IMG/VR virus record: IMGVR_UViG_3300007790_000263 | Span: 1 to 6,658 of that record | Length of the DNA: 6,658 nt | Origin: a virus | Taxonomy: Duplodnaviria > Heunggongvirae > Uroviricota > Caudoviricetes | Strand: one strand, 5' to 3' | Part shown: positions 1 to 6,658 of the stretch, one piece after another | Layout: each line of letters starts with the position of its first letter | Numbering within the stretch: position 1 is the stretch's first letter | The notes under the pieces: generated by a model | Databases searched by the model: none | What the model saw: only the letters and a program-made list of their open reading frames with translations | Told to the model about the DNA's origin: nothing | Translations under genes and position numbers: made by a program

Positions 1-314
1 CTACTCCCTGCTCAATATTTACTACAAATTTAACAATAAATTAAAACATATCAAACTAAACAATGGGGGGTAAGATTCACTCATGAAATGTATTAAAAAT
101 GATTCATCAGCTAGCCACAGTACTTTCTTACATACGACGTGCCTTCACTTTCAACTCCCGCCAACTCACCAATCAGGACAGGAAAGCAGGCAGAAATCCC
201 TCAAAAACCAAAAAAACAATTTTTATACTGAAAATCAACAAGTTAAACAATGAAAATTATCCTCCCCATCGATTTTCACCTCATCAAAAAGAGTTTTTTC
301 TAATATAGAATCCT

Positions 315-341
315 TTGTTTCATCAGTTTTTTTGTTATAAA
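315..341 (+). promoter_or_regulatory. Putative sigma70-type promoter for the membrane-protein/TIR operon (extended -10 TGtTATAAA at 333-341, weak -35 TTGTTT at 315-320)
   Basis: TGnTATAAA-like extended -10 about 30 nt upstream of the ATG at 373, followed by a GAGGA Shine-Dalgarno at 363-367. The -35/-10 spacing is short (~15 bp) and the region is AT-rich, so hexamer matches are easy to find by chance. Confidence 0.3.
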
Positions 342-372
342 GTATACTTTTGATCAAAGTCTGAGGATATTC

Positions 373-831
373 ATGAGTACAGAAAACTTACAACCAGAAC
401 ATCGTGATGACGGATTACCCGCTAAAATAGCAGCATTAGCAAGTCTGCAAGCCATAATTGCAAGGATGGCTTCAAATTCACAATTAATGAAAACGTGGGC
501 CATCACTATCGTTACTGGATTCATAGCTATCAAGTCGACTTTTGGTGGACTTGGGTATCTATCTTATCTAGTGCCGATTCTTATTTGCATTTCATTCTCC
601 TTTCTTGACTCTTATTATCTTTCTCAAGAAAAGATATTTAGAGATGTTTATAATAAATTAGCGGCCATTCCCGTTGGGAACGAAATGATGTACCTAGATT
701 TCAAAGGCGAAATATATAAAACTTCACAAGAAGAAAATAATTCATTAATGATTTGTTTCAAGTCCCCATCAATTAGTTTATTTTATATCCCAATGGCAAT
801 CATTTCTACAGTGATATTAATCATAGGATAA
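373..831 (+). CDS. Small membrane protein (152 aa, about three predicted TM helices); candidate effector or partner of the downstream TIR-like protein
   Basis: ORF from the track; GAGGA at 363-367 sits 5 nt before the ATG. Hydrophobic helix-length stretches at about aa 41-57, 59-78 and 133-152 (C-terminal ISLFYIPMAIISTVILIIG). Only 4 nt separate its stop from the next start, implying an operon. AT-rich codon usage matches the neighbouring gene. No family recognised by eye. Confidence 0.65.
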   Translation: MSTENLQPEHRDDGLPAKIAALASLQAIIARMASNSQLMKTWAITIVTGFIAIKSTFGGLGYLSYLVPILICISFSFLDSYYLSQEKIFRDVYNKLAAIPVGNEMMYLDFKGEIYKTSQEENNSLMICFKSPSISLFYIPMAIISTVILIIG

Positions 832-835
832 TATT

Positions 836-1654
836 ATGCTTGTTAAATTCAGAATAGATCGAAATACAATTACAAATAACAGCACAATTTTAAACGCTAA
901 TGACAACCATTTAATTTACTCAAACCTAAATGACACAGATATAAACTCAAAAATATTTGACGCTGTAAATGGTGAAATATCAGCAAAGAAACTAGCCGAC
1001 GAACTATTTCCTGAAAACGAACCACACATTTTTATATCTCATAGTAGCAAAGACGTAAATGTAGCAATAAGTCTAGCAAACACTCTTTATGCAAAATATA
1101 AGATAACATCTTTCATTGACTCCCAACTTTGGGGACATATTGACCACGCACTAAAGGAAATGCATAATCGATACTGCAAGATCCCCGGCTCATCTTATTA
1201 CCACTATGATAAATCTAATAACCTACTATCTCATATGCACGCCATACTAAGTATGGCTTTAATGAGAGTAATGGATAACGCTGACAGCGTTATATTTATC
1301 GAATCCGGCAACTCAATTTACCAATATATGGGAGATACTACCATTGCTCCCCAAGAAGCAATTGAAAAAACATCTGAAACATTATCTCCATGGATATCCT
1401 CTGAGGTGAATTTTGCAAATACCTTAAGATTGAAAGGCCATAAAGATAGAGAACAACCATTAATGGAAAGCACAGATTCATACTCTTTAAACAAGAGTAA
1501 TATTAAAGCAGACTCCTTACCCAAAATAATACATGAAGTCAACTTAAGTAAATTCATAGAGATAGACAACAAAAAATTCAAAGAGTCTTTATCATTAAAT
1601 GAAACAAATCCAATAAAAACTTTAGATATGATTTACCAAATATATGCTCAATAG
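836..1654 (+). CDS. TIR-like domain protein (ThsB-like / DUF1863-type), 272 aa, with N- and C-terminal extensions
   Basis: ORF from the track; AGGA at 823-826 upstream. Residues 64-72 (IFISHSSKD) match the first beta-strand signature of bacterial TIR/ThsB-like domains (compare vFfSfhyqD). TSFIDSQ forms a plausible second strand. SPWISSE (aa 184-190, Glu codon at 1403-1405) resembles the S-x-W-C-x-x-E-l motif that carries the catalytic Glu of TIR NADases. About 60 aa N-terminal and 70 aa C-terminal to the domain have no recognisable family. Confidence 0.7.
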   Translation: MLVKFRIDRNTITNNSTILNANDNHLIYSNLNDTDINSKIFDAVNGEISAKKLADELFPENEPHIFISHSSKDVNVAISLANTLYAKYKITSFIDSQLWGHIDHALKEMHNRYCKIPGSSYYHYDKSNNLLSHMHAILSMALMRVMDNADSVIFIESGNSIYQYMGDTTIAPQEAIEKTSETLSPWISSEVNFANTLRLKGHKDREQPLMESTDSYSLNKSNIKADSLPKIIHEVNLSKFIEIDNKKFKESLSLNETNPIKTLDMIYQIYAQ

Positions 1655-1682
1655 GTAGTTTTTATTTTTAGCATCTAATAAA

Positions 1683-1714
1683 CCGTTGGCACATCATATA
1701 CAACGTGCCAACGG
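1683..1714. terminator. Stem-loop at the island boundary: perfect 10-bp inverted repeat CCGTTGGCAC / GTGCCAACGG with a 12-nt loop; possible bidirectional intrinsic terminator
   Basis: Inverted repeat read directly (1683-1692 and 1705-1714), 28 nt after the TIR gene stop. The T-rich run lies on the left side, so it gives a U-tract (UUUAUU) for minus-strand transcripts; the plus-strand side has a poor U-tract. Confidence 0.45.
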
Positions 1715-1861
1715 AACGAGTCAATTACAATTATTTTATGGCAGGAAAAACTGACGAATCAATATCTGGTTCGGTTGCTGTATCAATACGGTTCAGCAAC
1801 ACCTAATATTTCTTCCATGCCGCCAGCAATGAGGTCTCCTCTGCCGCCACAATACCCAAAT

Positions 1862-2002
1862 CTACGGCATCCTGAAGCGGTGCAATATGCTCACCCTGAT
1901 TTTATCTTCAAAAATCCGGTCGCATCCTGCACAGTTCAACGCATTACGTTGTAGATCGGTATTCTGGTCATTTGTTGATACGCGTACATAGCCAATAAGC
2001 AT
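1862..2002 (-). pseudogene. Truncated serine DNA invertase (Gin/Hin/Pin/Cin family), N-terminal ~35 codons only
   Basis: Minus-strand ATG at 2002-2000 preceded by GGGAG. Codons 1-35 translate to [35 protein letters not shown], which matches the invertase N-terminus including the catalytic-Ser motif YVRVST, as recalled. After codon 35 the frame reads [11 protein letters not shown] and stops at 1862-1864; none of the three frames downstream resembles the rest of an invertase. Intact invertases are about 180-190 aa. Confidence 0.75.
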
Positions 2003-2028
2003 GGTAGATCTCCCTGACAAAAGCAGGA

Positions 2029-2421
2029 ATGATGCCATTTGCTCGTTATTTCTGCATTTTCATAAACGTTGGTTTGGGAGAAGCGGCTAAAAGGAATGTA
2101 GGGACAGGGGCGAATCAGATACCTGATATGGGTAGCTTCACGCTTTCTGTTTCAGGTACTGGATATCAAAAATTACCATCAGGTTTTATTCTTCAGTGGG
2201 GTTCAATCGGCGCACCAGGCATTGCACAGGATGTGGTAACCCATTTTCCGATTGCATTTCCAAACCGATGTCTGCGTGTTTTGGTCTCACAAGACTACAC
2301 ACCAGATAGCGGGGCTGTTGGTTATATTGCCTGCGCAGGTTTTAGTTCCGACCCGGTTAAATTTATATCCAGAGCCGGTACTCCAGGTCTCGGCGCTTCA
2401 TTTTTAGCGTTAGGCTGTTAA
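2029..2421 (+). CDS. Alternative tail-fibre C-terminal variable cassette (promoterless; in frame with the fibre constant region after inversion)
   Basis: ORF from the track. Its ATG at 2029 lies outside the invertible segment and has no proper RBS (AGGA abuts the ATG). From the crossover site at 2057-2082 the frame reads [10 protein letters not shown], with the same frame and GLGE junction as ENLGLGEG in the expressed fibre gene. TAA stop at 2419-2421 is followed by a good RBS and the tfa' start. Confidence 0.6.
2057..2082. other. Left invertase crossover site (hix/gix/pix-like 26-bp site, TTTTCATAAACG-TT-GGTTTGGGAGAA)
   Basis: Inverted relative to the site at 3925-3950: its right half GGTTTGGGAGAA is the exact reverse complement of the left half TTCTCCCAAACC of the other site. 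Has the AAACC-NN-GGTTT core architecture of hixL (TTCTTGAAAACCAAGGTTTTTGATAA, from memory). Lies 55 bp from the invertase start. Confidence 0.75.
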
Positions 2422-2442
2422 TTTAGCTATATGGAGTGAAAA

Positions 2443-2883
2443 ATGAATTACATATATTCCGCGACTACAAACTCTTTCTATCCACTGGAAATGAAAGAGG
2501 ATTACACTCAAGCTGACTCATGGCCAGATGATGCTGTTGAAGTTGATGAGCAGGTGTATATTGAGTTTTCCGGATTACCGCCGGAAGGAAAAATCCGTAT
2601 CGCTGGAGAAAATGGTTTTCCTGCATGGTCTGAAATTCCACCACCAACACCTGAGGAACAGATTGCTGCAGCCGAACTGGAAAAGCAGCAACTGATTAAT
2701 CAGGCCAACGATTATATGAACAGTAAACAATGGCCTGGTAAAGCGGCTATTGGTCGTCTGAAAGGTGAGGAACTGGCGCAATATAATCTGTGGCTGGATT
2801 ATCTGGACGCACTGGAGCTGGTCGATACTTCCAGTGCGCCAGATATTGAATGGCCTACGCCTCCGGCAGTTCAGGCCAGATGA
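2443..2883 (+). CDS. Tail fibre assembly protein, alternative-orientation copy (Tfa' / U'-like), 146 aa
   Basis: ORF from the track; GGAGTG RBS at 2432-2437. C-terminus DIEWPTPPAVQ carries the W-P-x-x-P ending typical of Tfa chaperones and parallels DVIWPELPEA in the convergent tfa. Lies directly downstream of the alternative fibre cassette. Confidence 0.75.
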   Translation: MNYIYSATTNSFYPLEMKEDYTQADSWPDDAVEVDEQVYIEFSGLPPEGKIRIAGENGFPAWSEIPPPTPEEQIAAAELEKQQLINQANDYMNSKQWPGKAAIGRLKGEELAQYNLWLDYLDALELVDTSSAPDIEWPTPPAVQAR

Positions 2884-3457
2884 CATCCGGCGCGGTGCTG
2901 GTATCTGTTGCCGTCACCGCGTCAATGTAATCCAGCACAGCGTTAAGCCGGGTTGTTTCTGCCTGCGTCAGTTTCCGCCCGGCCTGTAATTTCAGCTGAA
3001 TCAGACTAATGGAAGCCATTGCTGCATCAATCAGTGACTGGCGCTGTGCTTCTGCCGCTTCTACTGCGGCACCGTGTTGTGCCTCAGAATCTGTCACCCA
3101 TTTCTCACCATCCCATTTATCATATGTCGTTAACGGGACGATAGTGGTTGTATTTTCAGGGTAATCACCCGGAGCTGTGATTTCTTTTGCTTCTCCTGTT
3201 TCGGTGCTATAGATAATTTCACCGCGATGGTCTGGCATATATTCCCATGAGTTTAAATCTACTGAACGGCAGATTGCATAACCAGCCTTATATGTGCCAG
3301 GAGCATCTAAACAGGAATATGCCGGGATACCGACACCAACGGCAAGATATTCATTTGAAGTGGAAATATATTCCCGTGTTTCACCATCATAGTTATAGAC
3401 GGTAATATTCCCCGCCTTCGTGGCAATAAGTTCGCTATTTAATACGGCTTTATCCAT
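2855..3457 (-). CDS. Tail fibre assembly protein (Tfa / U-like chaperone), 200 aa
   Basis: ORF from the track. Its start overlaps the fibre stop (TAATG at 3455-3459). C-terminal DVIWPELPEA motif. Sits immediately downstream of the tail fibre, in the position of Mu U / P2 G. Confidence 0.8.
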   Translation of the reverse strand: MDKAVLNSELIATKAGNITVYNYDGETREYISTSNEYLAVGVGIPAYSCLDAPGTYKAGYAICRSVDLNSWEYMPDHRGEIIYSTETGEAKEITAPGDYPENTTTIVPLTTYDKWDGEKWVTDSEAQHGAAVEAAEAQRQSLIDAAMASISLIQLKLQAGRKLTQAETTRLNAVLDYIDAVTATDTSTAPDVIWPELPEA

Positions 3458-4275
3458 TATGCAGCTCTCACGATATAGTTAAATGCAATATTTCGTGGAC
3501 GGGTTTCGCTCCCACCTGTGTTACCAATACTCCCTCGTGTATGTAGCGTTGGTGATGGAATCAGAGTTCCTCCGGCATCGGCAGCATCAAGCCCCCGGCC
3601 TTGCGTATATGCTCTTCTGAAGATTGTCGCCAGTTCCCATTCCTCTTTTGAATCATACCCATCGTTGGCAACAACAATATGGCGGTGTTTTTCCAGCATC
3701 CCAGTCTGAATGCTCAATAAAGCACGTCCTGCATCAATACCACGCCCGTCATCCCATCCACGAATAAACTCACCACGGAGATCAGGTAGTTTCCCTGATG
3801 GATATGCTGTAGCAAGATGGGGATATTTCACCTTATCAAAGGCAGCGCCGTTGCATTTCAGCCAGCCCGTTGGCGGGGTTGCGGAGGGCCACGGAACAGG
3901 CACACCAACAGGTAATGCAGAGCCTTCTCCCAAACCAAGGTTTTCGAGAGCCGTTTTCACCGTGCCATCCGATTTGATATCACCAAACGGATTCTTGCGG
4001 CTCAGGTATTCAACAGCAAACCCCGATCCCAGCAATTCAACAAAACCGGGCAGATCACCATTATCAAGCACATCCCGTTGCGTTTTATCACTTACAAACT
4101 GGGCCAGAGCTGCAGCAATAAAGCTGGCCTGCCGAATAACCTTATTGACTTGCGCACTGGAGGCTTTCCCTGCTGTAAATCCGGATAAAAGCGCGGGCAA
4201 CGCTTCCCATTCCTCCTGCGATATAACATTGGCATTTCGATCCGTTGCAAACGCTTTAAAGTCATTTTTCGCCAT
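3457..4275 (-). CDS. Tail fibre protein (constant N-terminal part outside the invertible segment, variable C-terminal tip inside it)
   Basis: ORF from the track (longest form 3457-4293). I prefer the ATG at 4275-4273 (MAKNDFKAF...) because it overlaps the upstream stop as ATGA and has GGGGAG about 10 nt upstream, whereas the 4293 start has AGGAG only 1 nt from the ATG. C-terminus ...[19 protein letters not shown] matches the conserved ending of Tfa-dependent fibres (lambda Stf / T4 gp37 / Mu S type, from memory). The crossover site lies in-frame at ENLGLGEG. Confidence 0.8.
3925..3950. other. Right invertase crossover site (TTCTCCCAAACC-AA-GGTTTTCGAGAG) inside the tail-fibre gene
   Basis: 26-bp site with the AAACC-AA-GGTTT core, close to the hixL consensus. 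Inverted partner of 2057-2082. Falls at about codon 112-118 of the fibre gene, at the constant/variable boundary. Confidence 0.75.
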
Positions 4276-4955
4276 CAGAGTAATACTCCCCATGCTCCTA
4301 CATCAAAACCACTGATGAATTCGTTATCCATATCAAAACCAAAAAATTTTGAGCCTTCCGATGGGGTTTCCACCGAAGGTGTTTCAATGCCACCCGCCCA
4401 TACCCCGGCGGCTTTTACTGTGAGATACCCCTGTTTAATTGCCGCAATTAACTCACGCGATACATCTGAAATATCAGTATCAGGAAAGACCCAGACCGAT
4501 ATCGTCATGTCCTGGTTATCGACTATCTGCATTCGCAGCCCGGATCCTGCTGTTGCAGCGTCAAGAATTGCCGGAAGCGAATCATTCCGTCCATCCCAGT
4601 TATTAATCGCAATCTTCGCTTTAAGAATGACACGATAAGTTTCATCGCTGAGGTACATGTATCCGGAATCAGGATCGTATGGTCCCTGCCATACCCCCTG
4701 ATCATATCCAAGCCCGTCGGTATCCCAGCTGAAATAGACACCTGAGATAGGCTGGCTGACAACACGGCTACGTCCGATCCACAATCCCAGAATGTCAAGT
4801 TGCACACCAACCGCAGAGTCAATATCAAATGCAGTAATCAGCCCTCTGGTGGCAGCCGCAACATCAATAAGCGGCCGGGTCATCAGATCAACATGCGCAA
4901 GAAATTTAGGTTTGGTGGCGTGGTAGTTCGTGATTAGTTCGGTGTATTTGCTCAT
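4275..4955 (-). CDS. Phage baseplate/tail protein at the gpI position (226 aa)
   Basis: ORF from the track; GGTGGAG RBS upstream. ATGA overlap with the J-like gene upstream and with the fibre gene downstream. Function is assigned from its position in the V-W-J-I-H-G order; I do not recognise the sequence confidently. Confidence 0.65.
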
Positions 4956-6151
4956 GACTCCACCGTTATAACGATATTTTCCGGGGTACAGGACGCAGAT
5001 TCGTTGTATCTGATATCAATGTTTGATGACGACAAAACCCCCGGGGATTTCCCAATCGTCAGTTCCTGAATATCGTAATAGCGTGCATTCCCGCCACTCA
5101 CCACGCCAAGATTCGCCGGTGAGTAAATGCGACTTAAAAGGACCGAATCACCAATCGTCAGACTATTGATATAGTCGGAAATAGCCTGCTGGATCTGCTG
5201 CCCTATCTGTGAGGTATAACCCGTAAAAACTTTTAATTTAATCAGGGCATAAACAGGCACATCACTGGAACGCGAGAATTTGATTACATGGGGATTGCCG
5301 TATTTATCCGGAACCGTAACGGATGTTGTACCGTGAGTGGCTGTCCCCTGGCCTTTATTCCCTCTGATAGCCTGAGCAATATCCGTCACATCACCGCCAT
5401 CCACAATTACAGCAACAGAGTGTGGCGGTAACCCGTTACCGTCCTCCGAACCAGTATCGTTTTCATAGAGTTTGTGGCGGGTTACACCGGTAACATTAGA
5501 AACAGCACCATCCAGTGCTTCAAATGGGGTTATTGATGGCAACGCAACACTTTGCGACTGGCGGATACGTAACTCAGCGTCAGTTTCTGCCGGAGTGCCC
5601 ACAGTAGCCGCAGCAGGATTAGTTACCGAAACCCAGCCACGGGTTGGCGTATTAATTTCAGTGATAGTTCCAGCCAGCGCCGCCACTGCACCACTGACGG
5701 AACATGTTGCGGTCACCATCACTGTACCATCCACGCCGACCACCACTGAAGCAGGCAAACGCCATATCACATTATTACTGTCTTTCACGCTGCCATTAAT
5801 GATGGTTGTTCCGGCAGTTCCTGTAAGAAGCAAATCAACCGTAGAATTCGTCGCGCCTTTACGTGAAATACCATTTATTTTCACGTTACTGGTCAGTGCG
5901 GCTCCATAGCCGGTTGCTGGTGAAAAACAGTTGTAGACAGTTATCGCCATATTATTGGCATCATGAATCGCCAGCGCCATCAGAGCCACCATCTGGCCGT
6001 CTTTGCTGTCCGGTTCGAGGTAGGCATCACTGCCATAAATCTGCTGAAAATAGCTAATCAGGGTGCTGAGTATCGTCTGATAATCAGGCGCACTGATCCC
6101 CTCTGCGGTTACCTTTGCAGATAAACCGAGAGAATCAAGGTTCAGAGCCAT
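4952..6151 (-). CDS. Baseplate J-like protein (399 aa)
   Basis: ORF from the track; GGAGG RBS 4 nt before the ATG. TAATG overlap with the upstream gene. Internal PAETDAELRIRQ resembles the E-[ST]-D-x-x-L-R motif I associate with Baseplate_J proteins. Size and position fit P2 gpJ / Mu gp47-like proteins. Confidence 0.7.
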   Translation of the reverse strand: MALNLDSLGLSAKVTAEGISAPDYQTILSTLISYFQQIYGSDAYLEPDSKDGQMVALMALAIHDANNMAITVYNCFSPATGYGAALTSNVKINGISRKGATNSTVDLLLTGTAGTTIINGSVKDSNNVIWRLPASVVVGVDGTVMVTATCSVSGAVAALAGTITEINTPTRGWVSVTNPAAATVGTPAETDAELRIRQSQSVALPSITPFEALDGAVSNVTGVTRHKLYENDTGSEDGNGLPPHSVAVIVDGGDVTDIAQAIRGNKGQGTATHGTTSVTVPDKYGNPHVIKFSRSSDVPVYALIKLKVFTGYTSQIGQQIQQAISDYINSLTIGDSVLLSRIYSPANLGVVSGGNARYYDIQELTIGKSPGVLSSSNIDIRYNESASCTPENIVITVES

Positions 6152-6504
6152 TACGCCTCCGATGTAACAGTCGTTATTCCATAGAGAGTGTCGATTTCAG
6201 TGGAAAACCTGACACGTCGGGTCGTGGTATCCACCGTAGTATTGAAAGAGAGGATTGATTTAACGCCCCGCGTTTCGAGGATGCGCTTACGGATCGCCAG
6301 GTTGTAGGTTTCCGGCTTCTGCTTACCGAGTACGGACTGGATCCACGGAGTCCCCTCGGTGGTGTCGAGAAACCATTGCCCATACCACAATTCGAATCGC
6401 GTTTTTACCGCCTGCGCCACGGCCTCCGGTGAGTTAATCAGCCAGGTGTCATCACCGCTGCCAAAGGTGTAATCGCCATCGGCGTCTTCACGTCTGTATC
6501 GCAT
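6151..6504 (-). CDS. Small baseplate protein at the gpW / gp25 position (117 aa)
   Basis: ORF from the track. ATGA overlap with the upstream spike gene and TAATG overlap with the J-like gene. Size matches the small wedge subunit class (P2 gpW is ~115 aa). Family assigned by position and size only. Confidence 0.6.
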   Translation of the reverse strand: MRYRREDADGDYTFGSGDDTWLINSPEAVAQAVKTRFELWYGQWFLDTTEGTPWIQSVLGKQKPETYNLAIRKRILETRGVKSILSFNTTVDTTTRRVRFSTEIDTLYGITTVTSEA

Positions 6505-6658
6505 CAGTTTACCCCATCGGTATTGCTTCCACCGCGCTGAACACCGCCATGAGTGTGCGTATCATCGATTGGCTTGCCGTTAGCCTTAACGCTCCCCAAG
6601 AACTCAACAGCACCAGTGATTTTTGAAGCCACACCAGAAACAACAGACCCCACCATGC
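6504..6658 (-). CDS. Partial CDS (C-terminal 50 codons; N-terminus beyond the window): candidate baseplate central spike, gpV-like
   Basis: My manual minus-strand translation of 6656-6507 gives an open frame ...MVGSVVSGVASKITGAVEFLGSVKANGKPIDDTHTHGGVQRGGSNTDGVN, ending at TGA 6506-6504, which overlaps the next start as ATGA. The HxH motif (THTH) near the C-terminus is consistent with the His-coordinated metal site at the tip of P2 gpV-type spikes. Not in the supplied ORF track because it runs off the window edge. Confidence 0.5.
   Translation of the reverse strand, partial: MVGSVVSGVASKITGAVEFLGSVKANGKPIDDTHTHGGVQRGGSNTDGVN

Follow-up and report, generated by a model that had tools for sequence, protein, structure and literature searches.

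The closest described relative of the locus studied here is type V Thoeris, an anti-phage system in which a ThsB protein accompanies ThsF, a DUF2270 protein with three membrane-spanning helices (Yirmiya et al. 2025, bioRxiv 10.64898/2025.12.03.692087). [quoted passage not shown] 2025). Infection-triggered 3'cADPR has been demonstrated for Bacillus systems only, and one validated type V system, as well as the type IX system, whose TIR belongs to the same cluster, was not triggered by added 3'cADPR (Yirmiya et al. 2025). The signal used by the clade of the TIR protein described below is therefore uncertain. The sole proteobacterial type V system tried in E. coli comes from V. cholerae, has a TIR belonging to another cluster, and did not defend the cells (Yirmiya et al. 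2025).

Type I Thoeris of Bacillus cereus MSX-D12 (ThsA, a SIR2-SLOG protein, with ThsB) is likewise built on a TIR protein that produces a signal and an effector that the signal activates, and by analogy its signal, 3'cADPR, is probably also used by the system studied here. The type I effector is an NADase that kills by NAD+ depletion, whereas the effector at the present locus is a small predicted membrane protein and killing would occur through membrane damage. PADLOC also holds a computational candidate system, PDC-M50, in which PDC-M50A accompanies a ThsB-type TIR. A literature search on "PDC-M50" found no paper; the candidate appears to be the same entity that was later named type V Thoeris. 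With regard to genomic setting, anti-phage systems are held in defence hotspots, which are variable loci between conserved phage genes; that of P2 adjoins cos and is flanked by gpA and gpQ (Rousset et al. 2022, PMC9122126).

We conclude that the AT-rich block at the left of the 6,658-nt stretch of DNA analysed here (the window) is very probably a mobile cassette of two anti-phage genes, a type V Thoeris system, which a temperate myovirus integrated beside yfhH carries as cargo at its tail-fibre end (Table 1). As in the described systems, a two-gene operon encodes a TIR protein together with a small protein that has three membrane helices, predicted in our case. In Bacillus the TIR gene precedes the effector gene, whereas the order in the window is effector and then TIR; the family has both arrangements. 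Type V Thoeris has been validated in Bacillus, whereas the host here is E. coli and the ThsF-like protein, of 152 aa, falls below the Pfam threshold for DUF2270.

Table 1. Features of the cassette and its right flank, in window coordinates
Feature	Position	Strand	Evidence
Acquired cassette	36..1895		Comparison with sister prophage of E. coli O103:H2 12009 (L089)
Cassette core	256..1834		83.6% identity to lambdoid prophage UMB200201_11 at icd site (L002; blastn)
thsF-like putative effector gene (ORF1), 152 aa	373..831	+	PADLOC PDC-M50A, E = 3.7e-26
thsB (ORF2), 272-aa TIR-like putative signal-producing protein	836..1654	+	PADLOC ThsB PDLC00430, E = 7.7e-43
G+C-rich hairpin between convergent thsB and Tfa remnant	1683..1714		Terminator scan and fold
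Tfa C-terminal pseudogene fragment with in-frame stop	1731..1892	-	Translation; PGAP in L001; GC 0.457
Pin-family DNA invertase N-terminal remnant, 35 codons	1898..2002	-	Pfam Resolvase N-terminal domain, E = 1.1e-6 (overlapping ORF)
Invertible tail-fibre segment, conserved right flank of slot	2064..3943		20-nt inverted repeats

Composition, insertion borders and slot

Across the window, mean GC is 0.329 at positions 1-1740 and 0.484 at 1741-6658, and sliding values lie between 0.28 and 0.38 in the left part and between 0.42 and 0.56 in the right part. A single change-point likelihood scan places the best break at ~1765, with near-equal optima over 1764-1814 and a gain of ~64 nats over a model with no break. 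The two island genes have a third-codon-position GC of 0.29-0.30, as against 0.34-0.63 for the phage structural genes. These values bear out an earlier, sequence-only reading of this DNA, which had described a sharp shift from AT-rich to about half GC with a stem-loop at the transition; the profile is far from flat. When the comparison is extended to the left of the window, the AT-rich DNA continues for ~1.3 kb, up to chromosomal yfhH (L001 10705-12000, GC 0.32-0.38).

The same reading had put the break at about 1715-1740, which does not hold for the border of the acquired DNA. Homology with the sister prophage of O103:H2 12009 stops at window position 35 on the left and restarts at 1896 on the right, so that the cassette replaces 487 bp of that prophage, including the 3' part of pinE. 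The right junction (1895/1896) is identical against three further relatives (L003, L087, and L088). It is this junction, and not 1715-1740, that marks the border, because the acquired segment ends in the Tfa pseudogene fragment, which is normal in GC. The cassette core shared with UMB200201_11 extends from the region ahead of thsF, through thsF, thsB, and the hairpin, and includes most of the Tfa remnant. Two small ORFs (83-253 and 99-308) were rejected as spurious, as their Pfam match is at noise level only and they lie outside the stretch common to this diverged copy. No RNA family was found in the window with Rfam.

The hairpin has a perfect 10-bp stem, which the terminator scan extends to 14 pairs (7 of them G-C, with G-T pairs counted), and the surrounding 91 nt fold at -19.1 kcal/mol (z = -2.9). 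The 84%-identity copy of UMB200201_11 has the same two stem arms, and its loop differs by a 3-nt indel. The T-run is present on the minus strand only. Formally, the hairpin is the terminator of the tail-fibre operon; possibly, it also stops thsB transcription. A homologous Tfa remnant occurs in UMB200201_11, and the fragment thus travels with the cassette. The slot had been placed just past the tail fibre/Tfa genes and an invertase. This "invertase" is a short remnant truncated by the insertion, which PGAP labels "recombinase, missing C-terminus." In O103:H2 12009, pinE is of about full length but frameshifted. The adjoining tail-fibre segment is bounded by inverted repeats at 2064-2083 and 3924-3943 and lies in the opposite orientation in KOr019. 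The cassette's neighbouring genes are pseudogenes, and the region is therefore decaying.

Five different contents were found between the chromosomal flank and the invertase/tail-fibre module of related prophages, in which the baseplate genes are 97-98% identical. The slot is empty in L088, a prophage with an intact pinE that occupies a different attachment site. It holds only a 215-aa gene in O103:H2 12009 (L089), this gene and an acyltransferase in A37 (L090), a 281-aa gene in ECSC054 (L087) and phage vB_EcoM-611R5 (L003), and the 215-aa gene with the two-gene cassette in KOr019 (L001), the island DNA of which is also present in P4 and FP4. Neighbouring phage genes are of the DUF2612, baseplate J, DUF3383, and DUF3277 types, and in KOr019 the slot lies at the prophage end by yfhH. 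Most slot occupants have no recognisable defence function. The 215-aa gene, which lies to the left of the window and has no Pfam or PADLOC match, was rejected as a member of the system, as it occurs without the cassette in O103:H2 12009 and A37 and is absent from UMB200201_11.

The cassette occupies this slot in only 3 of the 322 E. coli genomes that carry the baseplate module, and is therefore not universal among related prophages. The variant with 83.6% identity occurs in 9 E. coli genomes; the cassette is present in 12 of 5426 genomes. The copy in UMB200201_11 is part of an unrelated lambdoid prophage next to a partial copy of icd and has a Septu system as its neighbour, and further copies occupy other prophage slots beside Septu or DarT/DarG. 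The proposal that the block is horizontally acquired prophage cargo is thus supported, because of its composition, its insertion borders, the variable content of the slot between conserved flanks, and the copies in other slots beside defence systems.

Like the published hotspots, the slot is a variable accessory locus; its own position is between the prophage end and the invertase/tail-fibre module. The phage is not P2-like, as P2 matches the window only at 2577-3949 (tail fibre and Tfa), and the slot does not have the placement of fun(Z) in P2-like phages, between gene G and the sheath gene FI. Two points recall e14: the invertase gene that is truncated here carries the annotation pinE in sister prophages, and the 84% cassette variant is in a prophage by a partial copy of icd, the e14 attachment site. 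However, e14 mcrA is absent here and the cargo genes are unrelated in sequence. The parallels drawn earlier with P2 fun(Z) and e14 mcrA consequently survive as analogies of position and fail as homologies.

The TIR protein and its predicted membrane partner

The content of the island had been left unnamed in the sequence-only reading; we read it as a type V Thoeris system. The match of ORF2 to the PADLOC ThsB profile spans residues 36-269, and residues 1-269 are identical to IMG 2649505888, which is listed as "DUF2270 - Type V" in cluster 2734579397, as an instance unmarked for experimental verification (Table S1, Yirmiya et al. 2025). ORF2 shares 30% identity (E = 3e-29) with the validated ThsB of B. 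thuringiensis DAR 81934. The latter is in turn 48% identical to a Neobacillus ThsB (L034), the neighbouring gene of which is a member of the ORF1 family.

Among 31 aligned sequences (alignment A1), the residues F66, S68, H69, S70, D95, W99, S184, W186, and E190 are invariant, as are the TIR motifs FISHS, FxDS, and SPWxxxE. E190 is the putative catalytic Glu, presumably corresponding to that of the (S/T)xWxxxE motif of other TIR enzymes. PF13676 is present in ORF2 family members, and the Pfam TIR_2 match of the window's ORF2 alone is below threshold (E = 0.02). The best solved-structure matches of the ORF2 profile are all TIRs (AbTir, E = 0.014). When the ORF2 model was compared with the PDB using Foldseek, BcThsB and EcThsB2 ranked first at non-significant values (E about 0.2, TM-score <0.3), a ranking that is not independent proof and lends weak structural support to the predicted TIR fold.

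Each of the four PDC-M50A profiles in PADLOC recognises ORF1 and its relatives (E = 3.7e-26 to 6e-50). The AlphaFold2 model of ORF1 (pLDDT 80.8) contains a long helical hairpin (residues 14-57 and 62-98) and a C-terminal helix (132-151), and the alignment shows hydrophobic stretches around residues 42-57, 62-78, and 133-151. Based on the model, we read the three helices as predicted membrane helices. The motifs RMAxNSxxxKxW and LDxYYLxQER are conserved (alignments A2 and A3). R31 and K40 are invariant and R90 is conserved, making these three residues candidates for the basic pockets that, in the published model, sit between the protomers of a homo-oligomeric ThsF ring or channel.

Neither ORF1 nor 25 close homologues match DUF2270 (PF10028) in Pfam. 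Among 20 diverse members of the ORF1 family, 7 match it weakly (E = 0.015-0.26), always over the same stretch (profile positions 23 to about 66 or 89) and with scores no higher than 15.3 bits, where the cut-off is 25. Because the Pfam threshold is never reached, the label "DUF2270" for ORF1 rests on the annotation of Yirmiya et al. and on these weak matches. SLATT (type VII Thoeris) and DUF6650 (type VI Thoeris, known in E. coli) were considered for ORF1 and rejected, as neither matched ORF1 or the 25 close homologues in Pfam.

In 80 genome loci that span many phyla, 60 of the 88 TIR copies are adjoined within 300 bp by an ORF1-family gene of the same strand, which may come first or second. 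Elsewhere, a SIR2-type ThsA adjoins the ORF2-family TIR (L043 and L059), and other neighbours, which are longer and have N-terminal hydrophobic segments, are apparently TM-Macro type II effectors. This swapping of partners matches the published behaviour of signal-producing TIRs and would not be expected of an effector. The closest Bacillus plasmid locus was set aside as a counterpart: it is a type I-like multi-TIR/SIR2 locus and has no ORF1-family gene.

Proposed mechanism and alternatives

By analogy with the Bacillus systems, ThsB would be a TIR enzyme that stays inactive until an infecting phage is sensed. It would then turn NAD+ into a cyclic ADP-ribose isomer, of which 3'cADPR is the likeliest. 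ThsF would bind this signal and may assemble into a membrane-breaching ring or channel. Growth of the E. coli cell would stop before the phage cycle is completed, protecting the lysogen population and, with it, the prophage. The cassette probably arrived by recombination with another phage, an event that would have brought in the Tfa 3' fragment and removed most of the resident pin invertase gene.

A more far-reaching idea, which we regard as speculative and rather unlikely, is that the enterobacterial ThsF-ThsB clade differs from Bacillus type V in its signal or trigger and that defence cassettes in general hitch-hike via Tfa-gene recombination at the cost of the recipient's invertase. The first part is raised because E. 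coli is not known as a host in which any type V system works, and the second because the cassette has passed, with a Tfa 3' fragment, between a myovirus and a lambdoid siphovirus.

We consider it improbable that the TIR protein is itself an NAD+-depleting effector, causing abortive infection without signalling, with the membrane protein as a sensor, an anchor, or an antitoxin-like partner. TIR domains do deplete NAD+ as effectors in several systems (CBASS, Pycsar, and SPARTA may be cited), no recognisable ligand-binding domain was found in ORF1 with Pfam, and one validated type V system did not respond to added 3'cADPR. However, the exchange of SIR2-type ThsA, apparent TM-Macro effectors, and the ORF1 family beside the same TIR family fits a signal producer. 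In addition, a TIR of the same cluster makes 3'cADPR on infection, and the B. thuringiensis system responds to that signal and is blocked by Tad1.

There is still less reason to regard the cassette as a decaying, non-functional remnant, that is, AT-rich junk with two fortuitous frames in a defective prophage. Such an origin would agree with its flanks (a Tfa pseudogene with an in-frame stop and a truncated invertase), with its rarity, and with the promoter search, which found no consensus sigma-70 promoter upstream of thsF, although positions 256-372 are still conserved with the diverged copy. Against it, both frames are intact in two lineages that are 16% apart in DNA and are under purifying selection, with dN/dS between the two E. 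coli variants of 0.23 for thsF and 0.21 for thsB. Both genes have ribosome-binding sites (GAGGA lies 7 nt ahead of the thsF ATG) and are separated by 4 nt, a spacing also seen in Enterobacter, Morganella, and Pectobacterium. The families are also large and conserved (>5000 clusters at 90% identity and 3531 representatives at 50% identity).

We give equally little credence to a lysogenic-conversion or superinfection-exclusion module that acts without Thoeris-type signalling (e.g., a membrane protein that blocks DNA injection and a partner that regulates it): a prophage-end site beside tail-fibre genes is typical of such genes and an acyltransferase fills the same slot in a sister prophage, but the specific profile matches to ThsB and to a defence-candidate family, the conserved catalytic TIR motif, and the cataloguing of the protein as Thoeris argue against it.

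Read as a type V Thoeris system, the cassette raises no new question: the type of system, this exact TIR protein, and prophage defence slots are already described, and it is a tidy but ordinary example. It is, at the same time, a clean, well-delimited natural instance of TIR-signalling defence in a temperate coliphage: its insertion borders are exact, and a phage of another type carries a diverged second copy. The cassette is therefore a convenient candidate for trying type V Thoeris in its native Gram-negative host, where no such system is yet known to work.

Slot variability and the borders of the insert

The sequence-only reading had taken the AT-rich DNA beside the tail-fibre module for horizontally acquired cargo in an accessory-gene slot, and this interpretation is right. 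The baseplate module occurs in 322 genomes (coverage at least 80%), and comparison of the slot, which lies between the flank and the invertase/tail-fibre module, in sampled relatives revealed five different contents, the variation among related prophages that a cargo slot implies. It is empty in a sister prophage that has an intact pinE and a different attachment site (L088). It holds a 215-aa gene without the cassette in the prophages of O103:H2 12009 (the gene only) and A37 (together with an acyltransferase family gene), a 281-aa gene in ECSC054 and phage vB_EcoM-611R5, and the 215-aa gene with the Thoeris cassette in KOr019, whose island DNA is the same as that of P4 and FP4. The parallels drawn with P2 fun(Z) and e14 mcrA stand as analogies. 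P2 shares only tail-fibre/Tfa DNA with the window, and the P2 hotspot as published also lies elsewhere in the phage than the slot described here (PMC9122126).

The 215-aa gene (GC 0.33), located shortly before window position 1 and flanked by yfhH and the cassette, has no Pfam or PADLOC match and appears to be an older cargo gene. The 281-aa protein likewise has no Pfam or PADLOC match, and the acyltransferase is possibly for surface modification. Phage vB_EcoM-611R5 has a 'complete genome' record (ON470588.1) with host tadA, yfhB, and yfhH at one end, and this record therefore runs into the bacterial chromosome.

The sharp change in base composition was confirmed. GC is 0.329 in 1-1740 and 0.484 in 1741-6658. 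The optimum of a likelihood scan for a single change point lies at about 1765, where the log-likelihood exceeds that of a model without a break by about 64 units, and the sliding GC profile is consistent with this. At third codon positions the two genes on the left have a GC of 0.29-0.30, against 0.34-0.63 for the phage structural genes. The stem-loop proposed at the transition is real; the last AT-rich gene lies on one side of it and the first sequence of normal GC on the other. Leftwards, AT-rich DNA continues through the 215-aa gene as far as yfhH. The extent of the insert is defined by homology with the O103:H2 12009 sister prophage, which ends at window position 35 and restarts at 1896; the insert replaces 487 bp of that prophage, including the 3' part of pinE. 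Because the insert ends on the right with a Tfa pseudogene of normal GC, the true junction (1895/1896) does not coincide with the border in composition (about 1750).

Features of the window and of related loci
Feature	Locus	Position	Strand	Description
Insert	window	36-1895
Small ORFs	window	83-308	+	56 and 69 aa, overlapping
ORF1 (thsF-like)	window	373-831	+	152 aa; preceded by ribosome-binding sequence
ORF2 (thsB)	window	836-1654	+	272 aa; start 4 nt past ORF1 stop, preceded by ribosome-binding sequence
Hairpin	window	1683-1714
Tfa C-terminal pseudogene	window	1731-1892	-	in-frame stop; right end of insert
Invertase remnant	window	1898-2002		N-terminal
Tail-fibre segment	window	2064-3943		inverted repeats 2064-2083 / 3924-3943
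215-aa gene	L001 (KOr019)	11346-11993
Septu	L002 (lambdoid prophage at icd)	9245-11234		PtuA/PtuB
Tfa fragment	L002	13470-13616
Host genes	L003 (phage vB_EcoM-611R5)	1-2254
281-aa gene	L003	3133-3978
281-aa gene	L087 (ECSC054)	5941-6786
Acyltransferase family gene	L090 (A37)	6428-7495
Related pair	L086 (Vibrio phage)	1347-2635
Two-gene unit	L092/L093 (Morganella)	7319-8635
Two-gene unit	L094 (Pectobacterium)	7082-7748
thsF homologue	L085 (Klebsiella plasmid)	3770-5797		ORF1-family match 3770-4039; second fragment 5513-5797

The tail-fibre segment, which carries a choice of two fibre tips together with two Tfa genes, lies in the opposite orientation in KOr019 at 99.9% identity. As only a 35-codon remnant of the invertase is left, the inversion was either catalyzed in trans by another Pin-family invertase or is older than the truncation. 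The small ORFs in the A-rich leader upstream of thsF gave only a noise-level Pfam match and fall largely outside the part kept in the diverged copy, and are probably not genes. No promoter was identified upstream of thsF.

Identification of the cassette as type V Thoeris

Two plus-strand ORFs occupy the island. In a search of defence islands for TIR signalling systems, Yirmiya et al. gave the name type V Thoeris to the combination of ThsB with ThsF, an effector of the DUF2270 family that spans the membrane with three helices. The type was validated in Bacillus, and the system of B. thuringiensis DAR 81934 was shown to signal through 3'cADPR (bioRxiv 10.64898/2025.12.03.692087). Their Table S1 lists the TIR gene IMG 2649505888, whose sequence is identical to ORF2 residues 1-269, as 'DUF2270 - Type V' in cluster 2734579397. 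The validated B. thuringiensis ThsB belongs to the same cluster; it has 30% identity to ORF2 (E = 3e-29) and 48% to a Neobacillus ThsB whose downstream neighbour is an ORF1-family gene. What the cassette contains is a defence system of known kind; the TIR protein itself is already catalogued.

ORF2 matches the PADLOC ThsB (TIR-like) profile PDLC00430 over nearly its full length (E = 7.7e-43), with Pfam giving only a sub-threshold TIR_2 match. The best matches of its family profile among solved structures are all TIR proteins (AbTir, E = 0.014), and an AlphaFold2 model (pLDDT 77.7) placed BcThsB, EcThsB2, and TLR TIR domains at the top of the Foldseek ranking, none of them significantly. Across an alignment of 31 homologues, the invariant residues are F66, S68, H69, and S70 (within a FISHS motif), D95 (FxDS), W99, and S184, W186, and E190 (SPWxxxE). 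E190 is the putative catalytic glutamate, as judged from other TIR enzymes.

ORF1 matches the PADLOC candidate family PDC-M50A (E = 3.7e-26), and its AlphaFold2 model (pLDDT 80.8) consists of a long helical hairpin and a C-terminal helix, which we read as three membrane helices. The family is large, clustering at 90% identity into more than 5000 groups and at 50% into 3531 representatives; it keeps the motifs RMAxNSxxxKxW and LDxYYLxQER and lacks Pfam annotation. We accept ORF1 as the protein that Yirmiya et al. call ThsF, although their DUF2270 label was not reproduced at Pfam thresholds, ORF1 and its close homologues giving no match to it at all; weak DUF2270 matches, recurring on the same part of the profile, were found in 7 of 20 diverse relatives.

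A scan of a genome collection with the TIR alignment yielded 80 loci in Proteobacteria, Bacteroidota, Bacillota, Spirochaetes, Cyanobacteria, and other phyla. An ORF1-family gene lies within 300 bp on the same strand, upstream or downstream, of most TIR copies at these loci (60 of 88), and copies without such a neighbour often adjoin another Thoeris effector. A SIR2-type ThsA stands beside the TIR gene at L043 and L059, and the neighbours at L042, L069, L077, L081, and L083 are longer proteins with N-terminal hydrophobic segments, which we read from their sequences as putative Macro-type type II effectors. Such partner swapping has been described for signal-producing TIRs (bioRxiv 10.64898/2025.12.03.692087). 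A comparison of the window with the 84%-identical E. coli variant gives dN/dS values of 0.23 (thsF) and 0.21 (thsB), and thus both genes are under purifying selection.

Mobility of the cassette

Of 5426 complete E. coli genomes, 12 contain the island DNA, three (KOr019, P4, and FP4) at 99.9% identity and nine at about 85%. In KOr019 the cassette is at the extreme end of a myovirus-type prophage, adjoining chromosomal yfhH and tadA. The 84% variant is carried by a lambdoid prophage at the icd site and has a Septu system (PtuA, E = 3e-197; PtuB, E = 1e-103) for a neighbour, so that this prophage end constitutes a small defence island; RefSeq names its PtuB a 'retron system putative HNH endonuclease'. 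A Tfa C-terminal fragment accompanies the cassette in both prophage types, and the two copies share a P(A/T)IK* end, the window copy having the in-frame stop. Since the segment common to the window and the variant (256-1834) includes the hairpin and this fragment, the cassette moved between unrelated E. coli phages together with a piece of tfa, which most simply suggests transfer by recombination in tail-fibre assembly genes.

Other Enterobacterales have the two-gene unit at different accessory positions. In Enterobacter soli, it lies in a lambdoid early/nin-type region; in Morganella prophages it adjoins DarT/DarG, and in Pectobacterium it occupies a small islet adjoining a RelE/MqsA-like pair. 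The neighbours of the enterobacterial cassette thus tend to be other modules of defence or toxin-antitoxin type. A tectivirus-like temperate element of 14 kb, Vibrio phage 10N.286.55.A5_PE002 (Vinavirales), has genes for a ThsB homologue and for a member of the ORF1 family directly past its integrase, and therefore this Thoeris type is also carried by non-tailed phages. A further copy of the pair is found on a Klebsiella conjugative plasmid, where the thsF homologue downstream of thsB is apparently interrupted by an IS3 transposase.

Proposed function and significance

Our analysis establishes what the two genes are, that the catalytic motif and the pairing of the genes are conserved, that selection on them is purifying, and that the cassette is mobile. 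By extension from the validated Bacillus systems, ThsB would sense infection and make a cyclic ADPR isomer, probably 3'cADPR; ThsF would bind this signal, oligomerise, and damage the membrane, which would abort infection. In E. coli, a type V system from V. cholerae failed and none has so far been validated; added 3'cADPR did not trigger one type V system, nor a type IX system whose TIR is from the ORF2 cluster (bioRxiv 10.64898/2025.12.03.692087). The value of the cassette lies mainly in its being a well-delimited natural coliphage example, usable to test type V Thoeris in a Gram-negative host.
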